Shown here piece after piece: positions 511 to 19,653 of a stretch of 58,101 bases of DNA. The first letter of the stretch is position 1; every line of letters starts with the position of its first letter. The position numbers and the translations under genes are program-made. Source of the DNA: an uncultured delta proteobacterium (GTDB taxonomy: Bacteria > Desulfobacterota > Binatia > UBA9968). The notes below the pieces were generated by a model, which saw only the letters and a list, made by a program, of their open reading frames with translations, did not search any database and was not told the DNA's origin. The stretch is taken from the NCBI GenBank assembly GCA_963804165.1, contig CAWDPO010000018.1, positions 1 through 58,101 of the forward strand, in the 5' to 3' direction.

Positions 511-858
511 TGTATAAGTCACGGCTGCCAAAAACTCTTGCAGAAAGTGAGTGAGATCGCTTCAGAGGTATGAAACAAAATTAAATTTTGGAACGCGCGG
601 CGCACATTGTCTTTGCGGGCAAGGTTTAATCGTCCCCTACCCGACTGCGTCCGACAAAACATCTTACGGGTATATAGCCGAACTGGAACAGTTCGTGCAC
701 ATTTGCGGTAATCGAGATAGCCGTTGAAATCCGTGAACGGTTTAAAAGCGCCGTTTTTTTCACACTGGTTTTTTTGCGGCGGGATAAAGTATCCTTGGTT
801 TACACCGGTGTATACGCCGGTTGCTTTAATGGTCGCACGAGAATCGACGGAGGCTGTC

Positions 859-1627
859 TTGGTAGCAGTCAAAAAGCTTGGATATTTGTTCGGATGGCTA
901 TTTGTTTTGATAGCCTCAGGCGTGGCGTTTGCGCAACCAGCGACCGACTATTCCGATCCGCCCCCACGAAGCGACGGCATGGGACTAGTAATGCTCGCGG
1001 TGATTGTGTTGCTCGTCTTGAGTGCCGGGGCAATCATCGCCGGCGTCATTTATCTCTATAAGAGATCCACCAGAAACAGGAGTATCGAATCTAGTCGAAG
1101 CAGCCAGCCCCAGATGCAGGAATCAAAGGCGACCAGTACTCCGCCACCGTCCGCTGATCCACGTGGCAGCGTGTTTATCTCCTACCGTCGTGACGACAGC
1201 GCGGACATTACCGGTCGGATTTACGACCGACTTCTCCAACGCTTTGCGAGGGACGTGGTTTTTAAAGACGTGGACTCCATTCCCCTCGGCATCGACTTCC
1301 GACAACATCTGGAAAGCGCCCTGAGTCAGTGCCGCGTGTTGATAGCGGTGATCGGTGACGAATGGATTGAGCGGTGTTGCGAAAGGCAAACGACGGATCG
1401 ACGATCCCCGTGATCACTTGAGGCTGGAGTTAGAAGTCGCCCTGGGCCGGAATATACCCGTCATTCCCGTTCTGGTCCGAAAGGCGTCGATACCCCCGGA
1501 AGAAGAGCTACCGCCCACGCTGCAGTCACTCGCTTTTCGCAACGGCATTCACGTCCGGCCCGACCCCGATTTCCACGGCGACATGGACCGACTCATCAAG
1601 GGGATCGAGCCGCATTTGAACCGGTAG
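859..1627 (+). CDS. Signal peptide + single TM helix + C-terminal TIR (TIR_2) domain protein, frameshift near 1370
   Basis: GGAGG then TTG at 859; hydrophobic leader ending AFA-Q; TM LVMLAVIVLLVLSAGAIIAGVIYLY; TIR motifs VFISYRRDD, FKDVDSIPLG, then in ORF 1355..1627 RLELEVAL and IPVIPVLV. Confidence 0.8.
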
Positions 1628-4011: not shown

Positions 4012-5962
4012 ATGGCGGGAAGATCAGATGATCATATTCGAGCGAAATGTTTCCATCCGAGCGGAACGTTCATCGAATTTTGCGAGGATGAGATCGAACA
4101 ATCCATCACGGAGCGGTTTGAAAAGATCGTGCGAAAGTTTCCGGATCGGACGGCGGTCGAAACTAGACGGCACCGTTTGACCTATCGCGAGCTCAATCGG
4201 ACCGCCAACAAAACGGCGCATGCGGTATTGTCGACATGCGGCGATAAAAATCGCTCCATCGCGGTGCTTATGGACCACGACGCGCCGGTCATTGGCGCCA
4301 TCATGGGTGCGCTGAAGGCAGGTAAGTTCTATGTGCCGTTGGATCCCTCGCTTCCCTCTGCCCGCAGCAAGTTCATTGTGGACGACGCCCAAGCGGAATC
4401 CATCATCACCAACTCGAAATATTTGTCGCTGGCAAAGACTTTAATGGAGTCGCCGAGCCGGCTGCTGAACATCGACGATCTTGACGATGTCCCCGATACG
4501 GATCCACTGGTGCGCGTGCGGCCTGACGACCTCAGCTGGGTAATCTACACGTCGGGTTCGACGGGAAGACCCAAAGGGGTAATGCAAAATCATCGCAACG
4601 TCCTCCATTTCATGATGACCTACACGAATGGGATTCATGTCTGCGCGGAGGACCGGTTGTCTCTGCTCTATTCATTCAGCGTCAATGGAGGCGCTCACGA
4701 TATGTTCGCCGCTCTCTTCAATGGCGCGACGCTTTGTCCGTACGACCTGAAGACGGAAGGTTTCGCCGAACTCGGACAATGGTTGATCGACGAGAGAATC
4801 ACGATCTACCATTCGGTTCCTACCGTCTTTCGACGGTTTGCCGACAGTATGACCGGCCGGGAGGATTTCCCGGAACTCCGCATCGTCCGGCTGGGCGGTG
4901 AACCGGTTTACAGGCGAGATGTCAACCTTTTCAAGAAACATTTTTCAACCGATTGTATACTCGTCAACCGCCTGGGAAGCACTGAGACGGGAAGTCTCAG
5001 GATGTTTTTTTTGGACAAGGAAACGGAGGTACAGAACAACTTGGTCCCAGTCGGTTACGCCGTTGCCGACAATGACGTTCTTCTCCTGGACGAGTCCGGA
5101 GCGCAGGCCTCCGGCGATGAAGGCGAAATCGCCGTCCGGACCCGCTACGTTTCCCCCGGATATTGGCGCAGGCCCGATCTCACGGCCGAGTCGTTCTTCG
5201 CCGATCCGGCGGATGAAAATCGAAAAATTTATCGCACCGGGGATTTAGGCCGCATCTTGCCGGACGGCTGTTTGTTGCACCTGGGACGTAAAGACTTTTT
5301 CGTAAAGATCCGCGGCTATCGCGTCGAACTCGACGAGATTGAAATGACGCTGATGGAATGTCCCGGCATTAAAGAAGTTGTCGTGACGGCTTTGAATAAT
5401 AACTCCGGCGACGAGCGCCTTGTGGCTTACGTCGTGCCCAAAACGGCTCCCGGACCCAACGTCAGCGAACTGCGGCGATTCTTGGAAGATAAGCTTCCCG
5501 ACTACATGATCCCGGCCACTTTCCTCACCCTGGATGCCTTGCCCCTAACCGATACTCTCAAAGTCGACCGAAAGGCGCTCCCGAAACCGAACCGGTTACG
5601 GCCGGAGATCGCGGTGCCTTTCGCGATGCCGGAAAACTCGATCGAGGAGGCACTGGTGAAGATCTGGGCCGAGATACTGGAACTCGATCGGGTCGGCATC
5701 AACGACAACTTCTTCGACCTAGGCGGGGACTCCCTAAGAGCTTCCCGAGTTATTTCTAGAGTGATTCAAACGTTTCAGTTGAAGTTGCCGATAATGATGC
5801 TCTTCGACTCGCCGACTGTGGCGCAGATGGCGTTGGTGATCGCCGGCCAAGCTGGCGACTCGTGACGAGTTGGAACGAAAGTTAAGCGAAGTTAAGGTGA
5901 TATCAGACGAGGAAACACAGCGGCGTGTCGAGGAAATTAATTCGAAAATCGCCAACAAGTAG
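4012..5962 (+). CDS. Standalone NRPS-like adenylation-thiolation didomain; short acidic tail shifted out of frame after ~5860
   Basis: A3 YTSGSTGRPKGV, A7 YRTGDLGR, A8 KIRGYRVELDEIE; carrier motif FFDLGGDSL. Tail DELERKLSEVKVISDEETQRR..K* lies in another frame and ends at 5962. Confidence 0.9.
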
Positions 5963-8730: not shown

Positions 8731-9486
8731 ATGACGTCCGATGAATTTATCGCCGAACTTTGGCGCTACGCCGCCGAGGTGCCGATGGAGCAACATCCGT
8801 GGTTTGACGGCATCATCAAACACCGCTGGAGCCGGGAGCAAATTATACTCGGTGAAGTTCAGCATTATCTCCGCGTGCGCACCAATCCGATATTTTTCGG
8901 TTATATGGCGGTCAATGCGGTCAGCGCCAAGGAATACGCCGTGATGGACACCGTGCTGGAAAACTTCATGGAAGAGCTCGGCGGCAAACAAACCCACATG
9001 GACATCATGCTGCAGTTTCTTGAAGAAGGCGGTATCTCGCGCGAAGTGGCGGACAATGCCGAGCCGGCGCCAGGTACGCTGGCGGCGATCGAGATGATCA
9101 TCGGCTGCTGCCAGCGGCGATCCGCGCTCGAGGGTGTTGCGATGCTGGCCTTCGTCGAAAGCCAGCTCGGCGGAGCGGGTAAAATATCCGACAAAGTTTA
9201 TCGCGAGTTGACCGGATACTACGGCTTTTCGCCGCGCGCCGCGGAAACATACAAGCTGCACGCGGATGAAGACGAGGGCCACGGCAGCCGTCAGATCGAC
9301 GCGATTCGATTGTTAGCCACCGACGATAAGACTCAGGACAAGGTCCGAGCCGCGGTGAAGCTCGGTTTGACTGCGTTTACGCTCGAATGGGACGGCCACG
9401 TGCAGGCGATGACGGGCAAGAGAGAGTTTTGGGGCGGCGTGGCCGACTTGAACTTGCACCAACCGAAGGTGCGGTTGCCGAAATAA
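8731..9486 (+). CDS. Heme-oxygenase-like diiron enzyme (PqqC/TenA/CADD-like)
   Basis: Candidate metal ligands ENFMEELGGKQTH, VESQ, LHADEDEGH; N-terminal HPWF. Confidence 0.8.
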   Translation: MTSDEFIAELWRYAAEVPMEQHPWFDGIIKHRWSREQIILGEVQHYLRVRTNPIFFGYMAVNAVSAKEYAVMDTVLENFMEELGGKQTHMDIMLQFLEEGGISREVADNAEPAPGTLAAIEMIIGCCQRRSALEGVAMLAFVESQLGGAGKISDKVYRELTGYYGFSPRAAETYKLHADEDEGHGSRQIDAIRLLATDDKTQDKVRAAVKLGLTAFTLEWDGHVQAMTGKREFWGGVADLNLHQPKVRLPK

Positions 9487-9616
9487 AATTGCAGCTTGCG
9501 TCGAACGAGCACCCCCCATCTTCATCTTCCCCCGTCAAAGGGGGAAGAAACAGCTTCAATCTCTGTGGGGCGATTCCCCGCAGTTCGCTGCGTTAAGCAA
9601 ATTCTCTATCCGAAGT

Positions 9617-9771
9617 CCGTCATTCCCGCATGCTTTAAGCGGTGGTTCGACATGGCTCACCACAGGCGAGTTCGGAACTGGACCCCCGATAAAAACATCG
9701 GGAGTGACGCCTTTAAGATGAATCTCATCGCCGAGTTCTGATACCCCGGAGCTTGCTGCGGGGTCATTCAA
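9617..9771. repeat. Composite REP-like element, family 2 copy 1
   Basis: CCGTCATTCCCG.ATGCTT...CACAGGCGAG...GGAACTGG.CCCCCGAT...TTCTGATACCC...GGGGT; homologous to 17996-18156; lies between convergent genes. Confidence 0.75.
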
Positions 9772-9820
9772 TTGAAAAGAATTGGTCTCGGTGAATCGAC
9801 TCGATACCCGAGACTCTCTT

Positions 9821-10042
9821 TCAGATCGGCCATTCTTTGGGCAAATCTTTACGGAGCTTTTGGTACTCCGGATCGTCGCTGTGTTTTGCCTTCAGGCGCT
9901 TGAGCGCCGCGACGACTTCCTTCTGATCCATCTTCACCGCGTTGGAGACCATACCCGTGGTCTCTTCGAAGCCGACGCCTCAGTTGCGTCGTCAACCGCG
10001 CATGCGCGATAGTAGATAAAGATCCTTTTCCTTTGTCGTCAC
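9821..10042 (-). CDS. Candidate 73-aa selenoprotein with U-x-x-x-U motif
   Basis: AAGGA RBS, GTG start, MTTKEKDLYLLSRMRG*RRN*GVGFEETTGMVSNAVKMDQKEVVAALKRLKAKHSDDPEYQKLRKDLPKEWPI. Both internal stops are TGA (9992-9994, 9980-9982); SECIS-like hairpin follows. Confidence 0.65.
9945..9964 (-). promoter_or_regulatory. Candidate bacterial SECIS hairpin
   Basis: GAGACCA-CGGGUA-UGGUCUC, perfect 7-bp stem; loop begins 22 nt after the second UGA and 34 nt after the first. Confidence 0.55.
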
Positions 10043-10069
10043 TGTCGTTTCCTTGAAATTTGGCAACGA

Positions 10070-10495
10070 TTAAGAATCTATTCCGGAGAATCCGACTCTC
10101 TGGGTCGTGATCGATTGGGTTTCAGTCTCCGGTTTGCCGTCGACATTCATCGTAACGCGGATTCGGACAAAAATCCGCCATGGCTCGTCCGAGCATTTGA
10201 CGTGGAAGATCACGAAAGCATTCTCGGTAACGAGACCCGCGGGCTCGTCACAGCGAGCGAAGACCTGAAACATTTTTCGCTCTCCAGGCGCCAAAGCCAA
10301 AGCGGTGGCGAAGCGCAGTTCTTCCGACTTGAATTGCCCATGCGGAAGATGAGCAGACAAAATATCGAGCGCATCGGTACCTCGGTTTTCGATCCGCCAA
10401 GTAATTCTCCAAGGACCGGCCGCGCCTTCCGATTGTGCCGCCGTCTGAGTCAGTTCGATCTCCGGGCCCGGCTCACGATCAGGCTCAGCGCTCAT
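10070..10495 (-). CDS. Conserved hypothetical protein (beta-rich, possibly Ig-like)
   Basis: 141-aa ORF starting 3 bp after the SBP stop; LPHGQFK and ENAFVIF segments. Confidence 0.75.
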   Translation of the reverse strand: MSAEPDREPGPEIELTQTAAQSEGAAGPWRITWRIENRGTDALDILSAHLPHGQFKSEELRFATALALAPGERKMFQVFARCDEPAGLVTENAFVIFHVKCSDEPWRIFVRIRVTMNVDGKPETETQSITTQRVGFSGIDS

Positions 10496-10498
10496 CGG

Positions 10499-11506
10499 TT
10501 ATTTCAGCCGACCCTCGGCGCGCAATTCCTGCTGGGCAATTTTCAAGATGCGGTCGTTGATGGCGCGATCGAGGGTGAATTTGGCGTCGATCAAACCGTT
10601 GCGTTTGTCTTCGTCGAGCATGAATTGAAAGCCCGGAATGTTGAGCGACAAATCGCCCGAAAATACCGGCGCAAAAAGATCGTAGGCCTCGTTGACGATG
10701 TCCGGTTGCCCCTGAAGGCCGCCTTCGTAGCCGGCCTTTATCGCCTCGGCCTTGTTTGTTTTGGCGAGCTGCATGCCAAGGATCAATGCCTTGAGAAAGC
10801 GCTTGGCGGTATCCGGGAATTTTTCCAGCGCTTCATTTCGTGAGACGATGATGCTTTGCGGGATATTTAGCGTATCGCTCATGTTAGCGATCATCGGATA
10901 ACCGAGACGCACGAGTCTCACCGTGTCCTCCGGTGAAAAGGGCGCCGCGACGACGATCCCCTTCTCCAGCGCGCTCACGCGCATAGTGCTGCCGCCGACG
11001 GAGCGCAACATGACGTCCTTGTCCGGATCGATGCCTTTTCTGCGCAGAAAAGTTCGAACGGCAAAATCCGAGAATGCGCCGGCGCCGGTGACGCCGATGA
11101 TCTTGCCTTTGAGGTCTTCCAGACTGCGCGTCGATTTTGTCCCGACTAGTTGGAAAGTCGTCGCGTTGGCGATCGAGGCGATGATGGCGGCGTCCATTCC
11201 CCGCGACCGGCTGCGCATGACCGCCTGCGCCCCGCCGATCTCGGCAAACTCGACTTCACCGGAGGAAAGCGCCGCGAGCGCCATCGGGCCGCCACGAACG
11301 AAAATGGGCTGTACCTCCAAGCCTTGAGCTTTGAAAAAACCGCGCGCCAGCGAGACCCGAAATGGCAGCTCACTGTTCCATGCCAAACCGGTAAAGACGA
11401 CGCGCAGATTTTTCTTTTCCTGGGCGTGAGACGCGCCGGGATACACGGCCAATAGGACGTATACGATCAACGCGGAAACCCGAATACCGCAACTACCGGA
11501 CATCAC
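10499..11506 (-). CDS. ABC transporter substrate-binding protein, NMT1/SsuA/TauA type
   Basis: Signal peptide, GFFKAQGLEV, DLKGKIIGVTGAG; tandem paralog of 11514-12518. Confidence 0.9.
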   Translation of the reverse strand: MMSGSCGIRVSALIVYVLLAVYPGASHAQEKKNLRVVFTGLAWNSELPFRVSLARGFFKAQGLEVQPIFVRGGPMALAALSSGEVEFAEIGGAQAVMRSRSRGMDAAIIASIANATTFQLVGTKSTRSLEDLKGKIIGVTGAGAFSDFAVRTFLRRKGIDPDKDVMLRSVGGSTMRVSALEKGIVVAAPFSPEDTVRLVRLGYPMIANMSDTLNIPQSIIVSRNEALEKFPDTAKRFLKALILGMQLAKTNKAEAIKAGYEGGLQGQPDIVNEAYDLFAPVFSGDLSLNIPGFQFMLDEDKRNGLIDAKFTLDRAINDRILKIAQQELRAEGRLK

Positions 11507-11513
11507 GCACTCC

Positions 11514-12518
11514 TTACTGGCGGAGCTTTCCTTCGGCTCTCAGCTCCTGCTGAGCGATTCTTAGTAAGCGGTCGTTGATCACACGATCAACGGTGAAGCC
11601 CTTGTCGACGAAGCCGGCGCGGATGTCTTCGTCGAGCATCTGTTGGATACCCGGTACCGCGATGGACAAATCGGCGGTCAGTCCCGGCGAATAGAGATCC
11701 CACGCCGCGCTGACGACATCGGGTTCGCCCTGCATGCCGGAATCGTAGCCTGCTTTGATCGCTTCTTTCTTGTTGAACTTTGCGAGTTGCATGCCCTGAA
11801 TATACGCCTTGAGAATACGCTTGCTGGTTTCGGGATATTTCTCCAGCACTTCAGTGCGCGTGACGATGATGTTTTGCGGGATGCCCAACGACTCGTTCAT
11901 GTTGCTGATCACCGAATAGCCGGCACGAATCAGGCGCACCGCGTCTTCCGTCGAGAATGGCGCCGCCGCGATGATGCCTTTCTCGATCGCCGCCGCGCGC
12001 AACGCCGTGCCGCCGATCGAGCGCAGCATCACGTCCTTGTCGGGATTGATATTGTTCTTTTTCAGAAACGCCTTGACGGCAAATTCCGAGTAGGTCCCTG
12101 CCCCGGTGATGCCGATGGGCTTGCCTTTCAGCTCCTCGACGGTCCGCGTCTGCTTATTGCCGAGCAGAATGTAGTTAGTGGTGCTGGAAATGCAGCCGAT
12201 GATCGCCAAATCCAAGCCGCGTGCATTGGCGCGAAAGATCGCCTGCGCCCCGCCAATGCTCGCGAAGTCTGCCTCGCCTGAGACCAACGCGGCGATCGCC
12301 GCCGGGCCGCCGCGAATGAGGATAGGTTCGATCTGCAGACCCTGCGACTTGAAGTGGCCACGCGCCAATGCTGCGCGAAACGGTAGCTCGCTGTTCCACG
12401 CGAGGCTGACAAAGACCATGCGAAGGTTTTTCTTCTCCTGCGCCAACGACGGCGCAGCGATGCAGAGCACCACGACCATGGCTGCAATTGCCACGGCAGA
12501 TTTCAGATTCCGCATCAC
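11514..12518 (-). CDS. ABC transporter substrate-binding protein, NMT1/SsuA/TauA type
   Basis: Signal peptide, GHFKSQGLQI, ELKGKPIGITGAG. Confidence 0.9.
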   Translation of the reverse strand: MMRNLKSAVAIAAMVVVLCIAAPSLAQEKKNLRMVFVSLAWNSELPFRAALARGHFKSQGLQIEPILIRGGPAAIAALVSGEADFASIGGAQAIFRANARGLDLAIIGCISSTTNYILLGNKQTRTVEELKGKPIGITGAGTYSEFAVKAFLKKNNINPDKDVMLRSIGGTALRAAAIEKGIIAAAPFSTEDAVRLIRAGYSVISNMNESLGIPQNIIVTRTEVLEKYPETSKRILKAYIQGMQLAKFNKKEAIKAGYDSGMQGEPDVVSAAWDLYSPGLTADLSIAVPGIQQMLDEDIRAGFVDKGFTVDRVINDRLLRIAQQELRAEGKLRQ

Positions 12519-15713: not shown

Positions 15714-17942
15714 ATGTCATTCAAATTCGTCGGCAAGGCGATTCCAAGACTAGAAGGCGCGGAAAAAGTTTCCGGCAAGCTGCGTTACGCGGCGGATTTT
15801 GAAATCCCCGGTTCTCTTGTCGCAAAAATTTTACGCGCTTCGCTGCCGCACGCGCGCATCGTTAAAATCGATAAGTCAAAGGCTGAGCAATTACCGGGTG
15901 TCCGCGCAATTATCACGGGTGCCGACGTTCCAGAGGTGATGGTCGGATTGCGCATGAAAGACATGCCGCTGCTCGCTCGCGAGCGCGTGCGTTTTGTCGG
16001 TGAACCGATCGCCGCTGTGGCGGCGGACAACGCTGAGATCGCCGAAGACGCGTTGAACCTGATCGACATTCAATACGAGGAGTTGCCCTACATCACCGAC
16101 CCCGTCGAGGCGATACGGCCTGGCGCTCCGGTGCTGCACGATAATCCCGGCGCATACAAGAACGCGCCGGAGCGGGCGACCGAGCTGCCGAACATTCAAT
16201 CCTACGGTCATTGGAGCAACGGCGACGTCGACGCAGGATTCAAAAAAGCCGCCCGCGTCTTCGAGCATACTTTTCGCACGCCGTTGGGATTTCACGGCTA
16301 TATCGAGCCGCACGCGTGCACCGTACAGGTGCAGAGCGACGGCCAGATCGAAATCTGGGCTTCCAATAAAGCGCCGTTCACGTTACGCGATCGCTTTGCG
16401 CGCGATCTCGGTCTCGACCCCGCGAAAGTCAAAGTGCACATTCTTCCCGTCGGCGGCGATTTCGGCGGTAAGACTTCCGTGGTCGAAGCGCCGGTTTGCT
16501 ATTTTCTGGCGCAGCGAACCGGCAAGCCCGTCAAGATGGTACTCGATTATACCGAGGAATTGACTGCGATCTCGCACCGCCACCCGGCCGTGATCACGCT
16601 GCGCACCGGCGTCGACAGCGAAGGCAAGCTCTGCGCGCTGCACGCGCGGGCAATTTTTAGCGGCGGCGGCTACGCGGCCCTCAAAGCAAATGCCGAAGTG
16701 ACCGTGCAAGGACCCCGGCGCGTCGCCAGCTACTACCGGATTCCGGCGATCCAGGTCGAGACGATCTGCGCCTATACCAATCAGGTTCCTTGTACACAAA
16801 CGCGCACTCCCGGCAGTCCTCAGACGACTTTTGCCATGGAATCGCAAATCGATATCATCGCGCGCGAATTGAGCATGGACCCCGTCGAGTTCCGCATGAA
16901 AAATCTGCTCAACGATGGCGACCCGACGCCCTTCGGTCAGAAGCTTAAAGGTATTGTCGTCAAGGATATATTAAAGAAAGCGCTCGATACTTCCGGCTGG
17001 AAAAAGCCCAAGGGAAAAAATATCGGTCGCGGGGTCGCCGTCTATGAGCGTCCCTCCGGCGCCGGAAAATCCGGGGCGGCGATCACCATTGAAACCGATG
17101 GCCGCGTTAACGTGCACCTAGGCGTGCCCGACGTCGGCCCCGGCATTCATACCGTAGTCCAGCAGATTGTCAGCGAAGTGCTGGATATCCCGATGGAGCG
17201 CGTCAACGTGCGCGTGGAAGACACTGACAAGTCGCCGTTTGATTCTGGGACAGGCGGTAGCAAGTCAACCAACAGCGTCGGAACCGCGGCTTATCAGGCC
17301 GTCGCCGAGATCAAAGATAAAATCGTTGCAACCGCCGCGGTCCGTTTGGGTTGCAAACCCGAGGACCTACGAGGCGTAAACGGCCGCTTCGCCGTTCCCG
17401 GGAAAAAACCGGTGCAGTTTGCTGATCTCATGCGGCTCGCCGTCGAGGAAAATCACGGAGCTATCACTCACCTGAGTGTGTATGAACCGTCGCGCGCCGC
17501 GATCACGTCGTTCGCGGCGCAGGTGGCAGAGGTCGAGGTCGATCCCGGCACCGGCCAAGTAAAGGTCAAGAAACTCACGACCGTCCACGACTCCGGCACC
17601 GTCTTGAATCATTTGAGCTACCAGGGACAGATCGACGGCGGCGTCGTCACCGGGTTGGGTTTCGCCTTGATGGAAGACAATTCCTTGGTCGATGGGAAAA
17701 TGGCTACGGCGAATCTCGGCGAGTTTAAAATGGCGACGATCGCGGATGTCCCTAGGCTCACGACTGTATTAATGCAGGACGCTACCGGCCCCACGCCGTA
17801 TCAGGGCAAGGCTATAGCCGAAATCCCCAACGTCCCTACAGCAGCGGCCATTGCCAACGCCATCGAGGATGCCGTCGGCGTGCGGTTGTATGATCTACCG
17901 CTGACGTCAGAAAAAATCTACGCGGCGCTTAACAAACGATAG
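15714..17942 (+). CDS. Xanthine dehydrogenase family molybdopterin-binding (large) subunit
   Basis: RASLPHARI, VRFVGEPIAAV, GGDFGGK, GQIDGGVVTGLG, AIANAIEDAVGVR. Confidence 0.92.
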   Translation: MSFKFVGKAIPRLEGAEKVSGKLRYAADFEIPGSLVAKILRASLPHARIVKIDKSKAEQLPGVRAIITGADVPEVMVGLRMKDMPLLARERVRFVGEPIAAVAADNAEIAEDALNLIDIQYEELPYITDPVEAIRPGAPVLHDNPGAYKNAPERATELPNIQSYGHWSNGDVDAGFKKAARVFEHTFRTPLGFHGYIEPHACTVQVQSDGQIEIWASNKAPFTLRDRFARDLGLDPAKVKVHILPVGGDFGGKTSVVEAPVCYFLAQRTGKPVKMVLDYTEELTAISHRHPAVITLRTGVDSEGKLCALHARAIFSGGGYAALKANAEVTVQGPRRVASYYRIPAIQVETICAYTNQVPCTQTRTPGSPQTTFAMESQIDIIARELSMDPVEFRMKNLLNDGDPTPFGQKLKGIVVKDILKKALDTSGWKKPKGKNIGRGVAVYERPSGAGKSGAAITIETDGRVNVHLGVPDVGPGIHTVVQQIVSEVLDIPMERVNVRVEDTDKSPFDSGTGGSKSTNSVGTAAYQAVAEIKDKIVATAAVRLGCKPEDLRGVNGRFAVPGKKPVQFADLMRLAVEENHGAITHLSVYEPSRAAITSFAAQVAEVEVDPGTGQVKVKKLTTVHDSGTVLNHLSYQGQIDGGVVTGLGFALMEDNSLVDGKMATANLGEFKMATIADVPRLTTVLMQDATGPTPYQGKAIAEIPNVPTAAAIANAIEDAVGVRLYDLPLTSEKIYAALNKR

Positions 17943-17995: not shown

Positions 17996-18156
17996 CCGTC
18001 ATTCCCGAATGCTTCTATCGGTGGCTCGACTGGGCTCGCCACAGGCGAGACCGGAACTGGCCCCCCGATTAAGAAATTCCGGCGGGTGACTTCTTCAGGA
18101 TACATTCTCGTCGTCACATTCTGATACCCTGTTAGCCTACGACGGGGTAGTTCATT
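17996..18156. repeat. Composite REP-like element, family 2 copy 2
   Basis: Collinear similarity with 9617-9771; again between convergent genes. Confidence 0.75.
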
Positions 18157-19151
18157 CATTTCCACACCGACTTGATGAAACCGGATTTCTCCAGCTCGTC
18201 CATGTAACTCGCGTCGATGAACTCCTCGACCTTGCGGTTTTTTGCTTTGGGATTATTCTCCGCGATCAAGCTCAGCGAGTTTTCCACGCCCTTGAGATTG
18301 ATCTTGGGAATCTTTTTGATGTAGCGCGACGTGAAGAGATCGTAAGTGTTCGCCAGCATATCGCGGTCGCTAATTCCGCCGTACTTGCGCAATGCCCTGA
18401 TGCCCAATTCGCGATCCGCAAACAACCGTTGCGTTCCTTCCATATAAGCCTTCAGGAAGCGTAGAACCTCGTCGCGATTGCTCTTGCCGTACTTGCGGCT
18501 GATCACGACGGTTGTCGCCGGCAAGCTATAGTCCGACTCGGCAAAGTCGTACAGCGTCTTGATATTCATCTTTTCCGCCTGAACGGACGTCGGAAAAGAG
18601 ATCACCCCGCCGTCCACCGATCGCTGTGCAATCGCTGTCGCAATGTCCGGCATTCTCCCGATCTGAATCAATTTCACGTCTTTCTGTGGTTCCAATCCCC
18701 AGTTCTTCAGTGCCGGCCGAATGAGCAGGTCCGTGAGCGAGCCGAAGCGCGTCACCGCCAGTGTTTTACCCTTGAGATCCTGCGGCTTGGTGATGGAAGG
18801 ATGAACCATTACTTTCATGAGTTGGCCATCGATGGAGCTAGCGACCTGGATCAGATCTGCGCCTTCGACGGACGCTTGCAGATAGACGACGGAAGAGATC
18901 GTCGAGACGTCAATTTGACCAGCGACGTGAACCTGCACCAACTGCACGCCTTGGACATAAATCATTTCCGTGTCGAAGCCGTACTTTTCAAAAAGGCCCG
19001 CCTCTTTGGTCGCGAAGAGCGGAAAAAAACTCGCGCTCGGAGACGGATAGCCCACGCGGATCCGCGGCGCATTCGCGCTTTTGCTCCGCATGGGCGCAAG
19101 CACACTGATCATCACCGAGAAAAATAGAACGGTTCGCGGCAGCAATCTCAT
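18156..19151 (-). CDS. ABC transporter substrate-binding protein, NMT1/SsuA type
   Basis: MRLLPRT signal peptide, GLFEKYGFD, DLKGKTLAVTRFGSLTD. Confidence 0.9.
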   Translation of the reverse strand: MRLLPRTVLFFSVMISVLAPMRSKSANAPRIRVGYPSPSASFFPLFATKEAGLFEKYGFDTEMIYVQGVQLVQVHVAGQIDVSTISSVVYLQASVEGADLIQVASSIDGQLMKVMVHPSITKPQDLKGKTLAVTRFGSLTDLLIRPALKNWGLEPQKDVKLIQIGRMPDIATAIAQRSVDGGVISFPTSVQAEKMNIKTLYDFAESDYSLPATTVVISRKYGKSNRDEVLRFLKAYMEGTQRLFADRELGIRALRKYGGISDRDMLANTYDLFTSRYIKKIPKINLKGVENSLSLIAENNPKAKNRKVEEFIDASYMDELEKSGFIKSVWK

Positions 19152-19214
19152 AGTTTGCCTCTGTTCCTTTATCGAAGCAGAAAACCGCGGCGCGCAAGTG
19201 TTCCGCGCAGTCTC

Positions 19215-19653
19215 GATGTCGTATCTGATCGCCCGTGGCAAGACGCAGCACTAAAGTCTGCGCCCCAGCTTCGGTGTGGGCTTGAATGTGATCCATTACT
19301 TGATTCCAACTGCCCATGACGCAGAGCATCGCCTTAGCTACGGCTGCCGAGATCAACGCGTCCGCGGCTAAGCCAGTCCGATCGTGGCGACCATGTGGGC
19401 GACGAGCAGCGGCCAGATACACCGCTGTGCCCAGCCTTTTGGCGACCAAATAATTCGACAATCACAATTCGCAGATATCGAACTTACCCTTCTGCAGCAT
19501 GCGCGCATGACGGTCCTGACCGTGCTTCAGTGGACTCCACTGGCCGACTTCCAAAACTTGAAGGTCAACTCCGTCAACCTGAACCGAGCCGTCGAAGAAC
19601 GGAATATGCCGGTCGTAGTGGGACAATGCCATCGATAATCGCAAATTAGCCAT
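19215..19653 (-). pseudogene. Chimeric remnant: 5' end of a 4,5-dihydroxyphthalate decarboxylase-like gene joined to a probable LLM-monooxygenase-like 3' end
   Basis: MANLRLSMALSHYDRHIPFFDGSV...FDICEL*LSNYL, then unrelated VMGSWNQVMDHIQAHTEAGAQTLVLRL. Confidence 0.55.

Follow-up and report, generated by a model that had tools for sequence, protein, structure and literature searches.

A probable selenoprotein with two selenocysteine codons, encoded next to a CADD-like oxygenase gene in an uncultured member of the Binatia

Introduction

The element of E. coli fdhF is an example of a bacterial SECIS. In the bSECISearch model, as quoted in PMC13188914, a bacterial SECIS has a stem of 4-16 bp and a loop of 3-9 nt, a G within the first two loop positions, a minimum free energy (MFE) of -7.5 kcal/mol or lower, and 16-37 nt between the UGA and the loop. 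Bacterial proteins with two closely spaced selenocysteine (Sec) residues have also been predicted; in Table 1 of PMC13188914, they include the metal-binding protein NF041115 and an FmdB-family protein, both with a UxxU motif, and the rhodanese/DsbD-like TsoB, with UxxxxU. The NF accessions in that table belong to the NCBIfam series that was searched in this study.

A second described system enters the comparison through a neighboring gene. According to passages of PMC9522330, CADD (CT610) of Chlamydia trachomatis (PDB 1rcw, 8va9) is a self-sacrificing Fe:Mn 4-aminobenzoate synthase that cleaves its own Tyr27, a Y27F mutant yields no product, and activity needs added Fe and Mn. Those passages mention no protein partner of CADD or its enzyme class, and none of the 12 literature matches listed, out of 99, linked selenocysteine to CADD or to heme-oxygenase-like diiron enzymes.

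Here, we analyzed a DNA stretch of 58,101 nucleotides (contig CAWDPO010000018.1 of assembly GCA_963804165.1; hereafter, the window) from an uncultured delta proteobacterium placed in the class Binatia, in which a preliminary description had proposed a small protein carrying Sec at two in-frame UGA codons.

Results

The arrangement of the small gene agreed with that proposal, in which a ribosome-binding site and a GTG codon, 27 nt past the stop of the upstream gene c1, opened a single frame holding two TGA codons. The frame ran from the GTG to the TGA at 9823..9821 and was interrupted solely by those two codons, and purine-rich stretches were present 5' of the aligned start in relatives. The coordinates of all features are collected in Table 1. 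Upstream gene c1 is probably co-transcribed with the putative selenoprotein gene; a scan of 9400..10700 returned 0 promoters and 0 terminators, which is consistent with co-transcription but is no proof of it.

Table 1. Features of the small gene, its RNA elements and its neighbors (positions are those of the window).
Feature	Position	Strand	Basis or detail
Putative selenoprotein gene	9821..10042	minus	GTG 10042..10040, 73 sense codons, terminal TGA 9823..9821
First in-frame UGA (putative Sec17, codon 17)	9994..9992	minus	TGA at 49/49 loci; aligns to invariant Cys
Second in-frame UGA (putative Sec21, codon 21)	9982..9980	minus	TGA at 49/49 loci; aligns to second invariant Cys
Near-invariant synonymous zone, 12 codons after the second UGA (+5..+16)	9944..9979	minus	third-position entropy
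Candidate SECIS hairpin, perfect 7-bp stem, 6-nt G-rich loop	9945..9964	minus	-9.2 kcal/mol
Small stem, 6 bp, 4-nt loop, 5' arm holds UGA2	9967..9982	minus	RNAalifold consensus
6-bp stem of the preliminary description, UGA2 in loop	9973..9991 (9991..9986 with 9978..9973)	minus	MFE fold of the window
Shine-Dalgarno-like AAGGA	10050..10054	minus	7 nt 5' of GTG start
Stop of upstream gene c1	TAA 10072..10070	minus	read from sequence
Upstream gene c1, 141 aa, no family	10070..10495	minus	27-nt gap
CADD-like heme-oxygenase-like dimetal oxygenase (PF14518/PF03070), 251 aa	8731..9486	plus	convergent neighbor

Full-length matches with two TGA codons were found by tblastn at 49 loci in 48 genomes, with 44-84% identity; these genomes were the window's own and 47 of 60 relatives, from three families of one order. 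Both TGA codons were invariant at all 49 loci, while the terminal stop was TGA at 19, TAA at 11 and TAG at 19, and an aligned ATG or GTG start was present at 48 of 49. When two unpublished genomes were set aside, the TGA pair was kept at 46 of 46 loci and the terminal stop was TGA at 18, TAA at 11 and TAG at 17. As the loci belong to kin, they represent far fewer independent events than 49. It is this comparison that goes beyond chance: the pair was kept everywhere while the terminal stop varied among all three codons, and the start was retained at all loci except one.

Coding-type conservation was present on both sides of the UGA pair, with pS 0.609, pN 0.257 and pN/pS 0.42 in the codons before the first TGA, and pS 0.606, pN 0.275 and pN/pS 0.45 in those after the SECIS zone. 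The three codons between the UGAs varied in a codon-like manner and included one invariant Asn. The preliminary description had predicted this result, a conserved read-through with TGA at both codons and coding-type conservation upstream of them, and had named the patterns that would speak against it: conservation confined to the part from MVSNAVK onward, or Trp, Arg, TAA or TAG at the two codons. No homologue had TAA or TAG at codon 17 or 21, in none was conservation limited to the segment starting at the internal Met, and Trp occurred at the TGA positions in only two metagenome gene calls, evidently through translation of TGA as Trp. Outside the order but within the same phylum, 0 of 250 sampled genomes had a match at E ≤ 1e-6; with up to 23 candidates scored per genome, faint similarities may have escaped this count.

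When 1.84 billion representatives were searched with a profile of the family, 124 matched. Cys had been expected at positions 17 and 21 of homologues, and all 22 full-length homologues that were called without a stop carried Cys at both (Cys-x3-Cys). Carriers of this form included archaea and Chloroflexi-labelled metagenome-assembled genomes (MAGs). Alignment of the Sec forms with the archaeal Cys forms by hhalign gave a probability of 99.5% and an E value of 2.3e-22 over 71 columns, matching U to C twice and including the part before the first UGA.

The family was absent from the collections that were searched. At E ≤ 1, NCBIfam release 20 gave 0 families both for the Sec form, with Cys substituted for Sec, and for the Chloroflexi-labelled Cys form; none of thirteen Cys forms exceeded a curated cut-off in NCBIfam and none of twelve did so in Pfam, which returned only sub-threshold noise for the window's protein. 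The table of 119 selenoprotein families in PMC13188914 has no entry with a U-x3-U motif, the core motifs of the family were absent from one (possibly incomplete) BSepDB supplementary text file, and a literature search for UXXXU and its variants as a protein motif found none. These results bore out the earlier impression that the protein fits no recognized selenoprotein family, and suggest from sequence that it is a selenoprotein family missed by the databases searched here.

Directly after the second UGA, synonymous variation nearly ceased. Third-position entropy was 0.20 bits in codons +5 to +16, compared with 1.29 bits on both flanks, and reached 1.25 bits at the equivalent codons of 55 archaeal genes of the Cys form. 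The hairpin at 9964..9945 was located as first reported, beginning 15 nt past UGA2 and 27 nt past UGA1, with a loop that begins 22 nt past the second TGA and 34 nt past the first and has G at loop positions 2-4; for both UGAs, it agrees on all four counts with the bSECIS model quoted in PMC13188914. Of 49 sequences, 48 formed this hairpin in their MFE fold, and all 7 pairs were kept in 45 of 46, the other sequence breaking one pair. None of the 13 predicted pairs showed a compensatory change; the stem does not vary, and its support is this invariance rather than covariation. Alone, the 70-nt stretch of the window had no better fold than its shuffled versions, with a z score of -1.14 and 26 of 200 shuffles folding as well.

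The synonymous freeze also spanned codons +5 to +9, which the main hairpin does not account for. It would be explained by the small stem at 9967..9982, which was part of the MFE fold of 43 of 49 sequences but in most sequences departed from the bSECIS model in two respects; this stem may be either a SECIS-like second element for UGA1 or a spacer constraint. A different 6-bp stem, with UGA2 in its loop, had been put forward in the preliminary description. It does exist in the window and in its MFE fold, but it is lineage-specific, since most relatives have other codons where it would form, and it was rejected as a conserved element.

A regulatory role for the conserved RNA zone is conceivable in principle, and gene callers reported only a 43-residue ORF in 192 of the 241 proteins collected. 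Both observations would fit a gene that encodes no selenoprotein, in which the UGAs are stops and a conserved regulatory RNA lies between a leader ORF of 16 codons and an independent ORF of 43 residues, or in which read-through occurs without Sec. However, the homologues with two Cys are continuous ORFs across the 71 aligned columns, pre-UGA part included, and the leader part is under the same purifying selection as the remainder. Codons between the UGAs vary as codons do around an invariant Asn, TAA and TAG never take the place of either UGA although both occur as the true stop, and no Rfam family matched the stretch 9500..10300 at E ≤ 1. Taken with these observations, a gene without Sec is very improbable.

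The genome holds all four of the Sec genes that the preliminary description had asked for. The tRNA-Sec (selC) scored 76 bits against a cut-off of 47, and selA, selB and selD, at 610, 357 and 385 bits, each scored above their curated cut-offs. The selD gene itself has an in-frame TGA, as does fdhA, where a hairpin starts 12 nt after the UGA, compared with 15 and 27 nt in the small gene. The conserved TGA pair, the Cys homologues, the hairpin and the Sec genes agree with the initial idea of a small di-selenocysteine protein with x3 spacing, and we estimate a probability of roughly 85% that the gene truly encodes a selenoprotein, one not yet filed, and that its UGA codons 17 and 21 are read as Sec. 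Among sequencing runs, no RNA run was listed as containing the locus, and the best DNA run had 0.26 of its words. Both codons would be decoded by the genome's own SelA, SelB, SelD and tRNA-Sec, under the direction of the in-gene hairpin, which is at SECIS distance from both UGAs, and the smaller conserved stem containing the second UGA may assist at the first.

The AlphaFold2 model of the small protein (pLDDT 90.1) had four helices and no beta-strand. Residues 17 and 21 fell within predicted helix 3-21 (helix 1), near its end, and by being four residues apart there, the Sec pair would share a face of the modelled helix, separated by a single turn. The Sec/Cys pair are the sole chemically reactive invariant residues of the family. 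An x3 spacing on a helix is no classical redox motif, which counts against a role as a redox partner. A thioredoxin-fold selenoprotein was considered and rejected, as the model has no beta-strand, the motif is U-x3-U with both residues Sec, and no Trx-family match was obtained.

Structure searches returned mostly helix-turn-helix (HTH) domains. Foldseek found nothing in the PDB at E ≤ 0.001 (best E 0.79), and the best match of a wide VIA-align search was a de novo designed helical protein (Z 8.8), followed by HTH domains at Z 5-6.2, scores that the tool itself counts as noise when proteins are helical. Structure neighbors in the Atlas were HTH-type domains at TM 0.55-0.65, and its feature search gave no usable match. 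Neighbors with these scores, of the sigma region 4, LysR, DeoR, MntR and GerE types, would suit a di-Sec protein acting as a small redox-sensing HTH regulator of the neighboring genes. According to both tools, however, such scores for short helical proteins may reflect a common arrangement only. Foldseek yielded no match at its threshold, no HTH family model matched, and net charge was not conserved, with a hand count of about +5 for the protein of the window and about -6 for that of the third family; we regard such a regulator as quite improbable.

Discussion

The small gene keeps the same company throughout its range. In the bacteria, an oxygenase gene is convergent with it and downstream, within 2.2 kb at 46 of 49 loci; of the remaining three, two are truncated at the end of a contig, and in one the oxygenase is 2.4 kb away. 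This convergent layout, as opposed to one operon, counts against a redox-partner role. Upstream gene c1 directly precedes the small gene at 48 of 49 loci, and all three genes were jointly missing in 10 relatives (82-99% complete). In archaeal MAGs, a locus search with an alignment of 8 closer rows showed the Cys form followed, at 58 of 58 loci, by a same-strand gene for a related oxygenase, in an operon that also has a Ta0938-family protein and in which the oxygenase bears a zinc-finger domain.

The oxygenase is 68-95% identical across the order and is matched by 1293 database proteins at E ≤ 1e-20. Its automatic annotation is "PQQ biosynthesis protein C", and it scored 59 bits against TIGR04305, for which the cut-off is 200. 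Among solved structures, CADD was its closest sequence relative (E 6.5e-12). Residues that we take, by comparison with the numbering of CADD, to be its dimetal ligands (a Glu near 81-82, His89, Glu143, His177, Asp181 and His184) were each conserved in 90% or more of the rows in the oxygenase alignment. At the position of the Tyr27 of CADD, the neighboring oxygenase has Phe25 in an alignment of low identity, and this Phe was invariant in 26 sequences; on this basis, the oxygenase would lack the sacrificial residue of a CADD-type 4-aminobenzoate synthase. The c1 protein was modelled by AlphaFold2 as a beta-sandwich (pLDDT 90.7) and has invariant His52 and Cys82. No Pfam or NCBIfam family was found for it, Foldseek returned only generic Ig-like sandwiches at TM 0.3-0.4, and its Atlas matches were unnamed clusters labelled Chloroflexota and Binatota.

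With somewhat less than even odds, we suggest that the small protein is a redox partner of the adjacent CADD-like Fe/Mn oxygenase. By cycling between diselenol and diselenide (dithiol and disulfide in the Cys form), the pair would serve the oxygenase, either returning its dimetal site to the reduced state with two electrons or accepting oxidizing equivalents generated there, and the third component would be the upstream beta-sandwich c1, in which a Cys and a His are invariant. The fuller proposal, in which the U-x3-U protein is a dedicated oxygenase partner in an electron or radical relay and a single hairpin directs two SelB-dependent insertions 12 nt apart, is doubtful. A complex prediction for the window's oxygenase with a Chloroflexi-labelled Cys form as stand-in, for which both proteins were supplied with database homologues, gave a score of 0.00 against a mark of 0.32, which is evidence neither way.

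The di-Sec protein could also handle metal, by delivering Fe or Mn to a labile dimetal site or by buffering soft metals. An i/i+4 pair on a predicted helix has a geometry fit for chelation, several double-Sec families in the PMC13188914 table are annotated as metal-binding, the activity of CADD depends on added Fe and Mn according to PMC9522330, and the archaeal operon brings a Ta0938-family protein and an oxygenase with a zinc-finger. However, each chain offers two ligands and has no other invariant set of Cys, His, Asp or Glu, and no known metal-binding family matched, leaving a metal handler rather unlikely, though no result here tells it apart from a redox partner.

The chemistry of CADD, the closest solved relative, which cleaves its own Tyr27, raises a further alternative, in which the di-Sec protein is the substrate or carrier of the oxygenase, with a protein-borne residue or a Sec/Cys-bound intermediate being modified. 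The invariant Phe at the Tyr27 position makes a substrate supplied in trans conceivable, and the archaeal small gene is directly 5' of the oxygenase gene at 58 of 58 loci. This alternative is improbable, as conservation covers all 73 residues and a fold is predicted, unlike a leader-core peptide, and a stoichiometric consumable with two costly Sec residues would be uneconomical; moreover, the low-identity alignment with CADD could be off by one residue.

As a probable selenoprotein, the small protein would add a well-supported family to the bacterial selenoproteome, one that annotation pipelines trim to a 43-residue fragment. With two UGAs four codons apart, the gene could serve as a compact natural test case of whether one SECIS is used twice or two elements are stacked. 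For an abundant and highly conserved CADD-like oxygenase that is without the defining residue of its only characterized relative, the locus also points to a partner protein. If the small protein is such a dedicated partner, no heme-oxygenase-like dimetal enzyme system would have had a selenoprotein component before it, and the module would be common to Thermoplasmata archaea, Chloroflexi-type bacteria and one order of bacteria.

Compared with the bacterial SECIS consensus, the candidate element is alike in being a coding-region hairpin whose second loop letter is G and is followed by G. It differs in that one hairpin is within range of two UGAs, and in that a second conserved stem includes UGA2 itself. 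The predicted double-Sec proteins NF041115, FmdB and TsoB resemble the small protein in having two Sec residues a few codons apart and a presumed metal-binding or redox role, and two such residues in one gene imply that two UGAs are recoded in quick succession near one coding-region SECIS. The small protein differs from them in its x3 spacing, which the table lists for no family, and in its all-helical predicted fold, which is not of the thioredoxin, rhodanese or zinc-ribbon type. With the thioredoxin-fold UxxC/CxxU selenoproteins, it shares the existence of Cys homologues and a chalcogen pair that presumably alternates between a reduced and a bridged form.

Conservation of the Two-TGA Reading Frame

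The anatomy given in the preliminary description (a GTG start 27 bp past the upstream stop, a ribosome-binding site, and two in-frame TGA codons four codons apart) was confirmed by the sequence. On the minus strand, a single frame ran from the GTG to the terminal TGA, broken only at codons 17 and 21, with a read-through product of 73 residues. The standard ORF listing of the locus held only a 43-codon ORF.

Features of the small selenoprotein gene and its surroundings in the window
Feature	Position	Strand	Basis or remark
TIR-domain protein	724..1413	+
Stand-alone adenylation and carrier-protein (NRPS-like) gene	4012..5865	+
Oxygenase (heme-oxygenase-like dimetal protein)	8731..9486	+	251 residues
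Terminal TGA	9823..9821	-	Frame end
43-codon ATG ORF	9952..9821	-	Standard ORF listing
Main hairpin, 7 bp, 6-nt loop	9964..9945	-	RNAalifold, MFE folds
Twelve codons after second TGA	9979..9944	-	Synonymous freeze
Small stem, 6 bp, 4-nt loop, 5' arm holding second UGA	9982..9967	-	RNAalifold
Second TGA, codon 21	9982..9980	-	Frame reading
6-bp stem of the preliminary description	9991..9986 with 9978..9973	-	Window's minimum-energy fold
First TGA, codon 17	9994..9992	-	Frame reading
GTG start	10042..10040	-	27 bases after c1 stop
Purine motif AAGGA	10054..10050	-	Sequence reading
TAA stop of c1 (gene 5' of the selenoprotein gene)	10072..10070	-	c1 of 141 codons
Paralogous NMT1/SsuA-like substrate-binding proteins (three)	10499..12518 and 18156..19241	-	Two in tandem directly 5' of c1
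Xanthine dehydrogenase-family molybdenum hydroxylase	15714..17942	+

A six-frame search of 60 relatives, with the homologous loci then aligned by codon, found the full-length frame at 49 loci, distributed over 48 genomes (the window's own genome and 47 relatives, one with two copies). These loci belonged to three families of one order, were 44-84% identical, and each contained exactly two in-frame TGA codons. No match was found in 12 of the 60 relatives, and one further relative carried a partial copy at a contig end (L039, G020:C559), the sole homolog whose two-TGA region lay out of view. That copy had an in-frame TAG at alignment codon 51, where the others had Lys or Arg, reflecting a pseudogene or an assembly error.

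Both TGA codons were unchanged at all 49 loci, so that neither TAA nor TAG, named in the preliminary description as contrary signs, occurred at these codons; the terminal stop was TGA at 19 loci, TAA at 11, and TAG at 19. Of the three codons between the TGAs, the first two were variable and the third always encoded Asn. An aligned start codon was present at 48 loci (ATG at 44, GTG at four), with purine-rich stretches ahead of it. Two genomes marked unpublished (G005 and G035) supplied three of the loci; without them, both TGAs were kept at 46/46 loci, terminal stops numbered 18, 11, and 17 (TGA, TAA, and TAG), and the entropies were unchanged. The pN/pS ratio before the first TGA, compared with that after the hairpin, indicated that the upstream segment was under protein-level selection equal to that on the part accepted by gene callers, and the coding-type conservation expected 5' of the TGAs was thereby found. 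Outside the order, no match was found in any of 250 genomes sampled from the same phylum, and the distribution of the family is patchy.

Variability of three segments of the aligned frame
Segment	Third-position entropy (bits)	Entropy at positions 1, 2 (bits)	pS	pN	pN/pS
13 codons before first TGA	1.29	0.74, 0.45	0.609	0.257	0.42
Codons +5..+16 (SECIS zone)	0.20		0.084	0.035	0.41
40 codons after hairpin	1.29		0.606	0.275	0.45

Cysteine Homologs and Apparent Novelty of the Family

A word-based protein search returned 171 proteins, most of them 43- or 51-residue fragments starting after the TGAs. It also returned two metagenome gene calls with Trp at both positions, evidently TGA called as Trp, and one 73-residue protein with Cys at both, from a MAG labelled Chloroflexi. 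In an exhaustive profile search of 1.84 billion representatives (124 hits), the full-length forms (~71 residues) were all Cys-x3-Cys. Among the 241 proteins pooled from both searches, 22 were full-length forms with the anticipated Cys at positions 17 and 21, two were the Trp/Trp calls, and 192 were the 43-residue fragment; none had a single Cys or another residue at the two positions. Profile-profile comparison of the Sec forms with the archaeal Cys forms gave 99.5% probability (E 2.3e-22) over 71 columns, each Sec falling on a Cys, and this alignment excluded a short leader ORF followed by a separate 43-residue ORF. The two Cys/Sec residues, Phe25, Thr28, Met31, Leu47, Arg64, Pro68, and Pro72 were invariant over both forms.

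Neither the 73-residue protein nor any of twelve Cys forms rose above noise in Pfam. In NCBIfam release 20, neither the Sec form, with Cys written for Sec, nor the Chloroflexi-labelled Cys form matched a family at E <= 1, and nothing came near the cut-off for twelve other Cys forms; accessions of its NF series are borne by the selenoprotein families tabulated in the accessible text of a 2026 review (PMC13188914). Table 1 of that text gives 119 families, a few of them with two or three Sec (motifs UxxU, UxxxxU, or CU), and its accessible entries include no U-x3-U. The core motifs of the family were absent from one, possibly truncated, BSepDB supplementary text file, nothing comparable appeared in the accessible text of the deep-Sep paper or of a 2007 paper on the Olavius symbiont, and a full-text literature search for the motif returned nothing on proteins. 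NCBI and JGI label the fragments "hypothetical protein." On the searches made, the family is not on file and is new to the selenoprotein catalogs, in keeping with the earlier remark that it resembled no recognized family.

RNA-Level Constraint and Predicted Selenocysteine Decoding

Third-position entropy and pS fell sharply in the 12 codons after the second TGA. In a control set of 55 archaeal Cys-form genes, the same 12 codons had 1.25 bits (flanks 1.10 and 1.58 bits), and several codons were used even for invariant residues of this zone, indicating that the synonymous freeze is a property of the genes with TGA rather than of the protein. RNAalifold recovered the main hairpin from 46 sequences, with all pairs intact in 45 and a single C-A mismatch in one; the closing A-U was G-U in 15. 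Compensatory double changes occurred at no hairpin pair in this alignment, and covariation therefore speaks neither for nor against the structure. The hairpin was present in the minimum-energy fold of 48 of the 49 sequences, and its loop varied at the fifth letter only. The window's own 70-nt stretch was unremarkable by itself (z -1.14; 26 of 200 shuffles folded as well), and no Rfam family matched the region.

The hairpin and its distances, as first described, were borne out: the loop starts 22 nt past the second UGA and 34 nt past the first. The bacterial SECIS model, in the accessible text of PMC13188914, calls for an apical loop of 3-9 nt, an upper stem of 4-16 bp, a G at loop position 1 or 2, a UGA-to-loop distance of 16-37 nt, and an energy of -7.5 kcal/mol or lower. 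With a 6-nt loop, a 7-bp stem, a G at loop position 2, and -9.2 kcal/mol for the hairpin alone, the element lies within this model on every point, and for both UGAs.

The freeze extended to codons +5..+9, outside the main hairpin, where a small stem was present in the minimum-energy fold of 43/49 sequences. The loop of this stem would be placed 15 nt beyond the first UGA, and its first two letters lack a G in 42/49 sequences, so that in most sequences the small stem departs from the SECIS model in two respects; it could act as a further, atypical element serving the first UGA, or it could reflect a spacer constraint. The observation as a whole was confirmed and the selenoprotein reading supported, but the second 6-bp stem of the preliminary description, which exists in the window's fold, was not conserved, as its codons differ in most relatives.

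The window's assembly (7.5 Mb, 46 contigs, 81% complete) contained all four Sec genes that the preliminary description had proposed looking for: tRNA-Sec (76 bits, gathering score 47) and selA, selB, and selD (610, 357, and 385 bits), all above curated cut-offs, the latter three clustered on one contig (G000:C16:139949-144339). The genome's selD has one in-frame TGA and encodes a selenoprotein in its own right. In a formate dehydrogenase alpha subunit gene (fdhA, G000:C35:23018-26293), an in-frame TGA precedes a 6-bp hairpin by 12 nt. The genome is able to make selenoproteins. We infer that SelB and Sec-tRNA would bind the main hairpin, which begins 15 nt ahead of a ribosome at the second UGA, close to the 12 nt of fdhA, and 27 nt ahead of one at the first, inside the range of the SECIS model. 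Either a single hairpin would act on both UGAs, four codons apart, or a second site would be provided by the small stem.

Gene Neighborhood and Predicted Function

The c1 gene was directly 5' on the same strand at 48/49 loci (45/46 without the unpublished genomes). At the exception, L053 (G051:C3, ~1384407-1384616), c1 lay 3.5 kb upstream and no ATG or GTG stood at the aligned start, suggesting an insertion between c1 and the small gene; both TGAs and the hairpin were intact. Of the three families, only the one to which the window belongs kept the NMT1/SsuA-like neighbor.

Downstream, the oxygenase gene was convergent and within 2.2 kb at 46/49 loci (44/46 without the unpublished genomes); two of the others were cut by contig ends and one had it 2.4 kb away. 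The small gene, c1, and the oxygenase were each found in 48 of 60 relatives, which are kin and not independent, with joint absences in several genera. All three were jointly absent from ten genomes that were 82-99% complete, four of these in one to seven contigs, and the few discordant cases were fragmented assemblies or contig ends. The oxygenase (PF14518, 2.9e-16; PF03070, 5e-8) was 68-95% identical across the three families, a level of conservation far exceeding that of the small protein, and was abundant, with 1293 database proteins at E <= 1e-20, metagenomes included. Automatic annotation named it "PQQ biosynthesis protein C" or, in MAGs labelled Binatia, Terriglobales, and Deltaproteobacteria, "iron-containing redox enzyme family protein."

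Scanning species genomes with the Cys-form pattern returned 58 archaeal loci (L065-L122), nearly all in MAGs labelled Thermoplasmata. At 58/58, a ~298-residue protein with a zinc-finger domain, TENA/THI-4/PQQC (1e-32), and Haem_oxygenas_2 (8e-18) followed on the same strand ~20 nt after the small gene; a Ta0938-family protein came next at 56, and the other two stopped at a contig end. The archaeal genes thus form a conserved three-gene operon. Because the bacterial and archaeal neighborhoods agree, the small protein's association with an oxygenase of the superfamily holds across two domains of life and the Sec/Cys divide. That one bacterial order and archaea share this small-protein/oxygenase module suggests that it was transferred across domains.

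An AlphaFold2 model of the small protein from a 41-row alignment (pLDDT 90.1, pTM 0.73) had helices at 3-21, 25-35, 40-54, and 58-65. Residues 17 and 21 both fell within the first, where helix geometry would set them on one face, separated by a single turn. Foldseek found no PDB match at E <= 0.001. In an exhaustive structural search, a designed helical protein scored Z 8.8 and many helix-turn-helix DNA-binding domains Z 5-6.2, a level the tool itself rates as possibly just a common arrangement; an Atlas structure search agreed (TM 0.55-0.65). These resemblances would fit a regulator, which we regard as highly improbable; the net charge, counted from the sequences, was not conserved between families, which argues against DNA binding.

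The pair of selenols, separated by one helical turn, is inferred to be the working part, as no other reactive residue is invariant. The oxygenase link puts most weight on a redox partnership, to which we tentatively assign a probability of roughly 40%: through diselenol/diselenide cycling, the Sec pair would re-reduce the dimetal site or take up oxidizing equivalents from it, and c1 would be a third component. The predicted c1 fold was a beta-sandwich (pLDDT 90.7) with invariant His52 and Cys82 and no informative structural neighbor. The residues that we take to be the dimetal ligands of the oxygenase, assigned against CADD numbering, were kept. The small protein might instead deliver metal, which seems unlikely, or act as a substrate or carrier, which seems more doubtful still.

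The closest solved relative of the oxygenase was CADD/CT610, a self-sacrificing 4-aminobenzoate synthase (E 6.5e-12). According to the accessible text of PMC9522330, CADD sacrifices Tyr27, and the Phe mutant is inactive; Tyr27 aligns to an invariant Phe in the oxygenase, and at this residue the oxygenase is thus no suicide enzyme of the CADD type. For the function of the small protein there is now a concrete, testable candidate partner, and decoding would follow the known mechanism, the two UGAs being unusually arranged.
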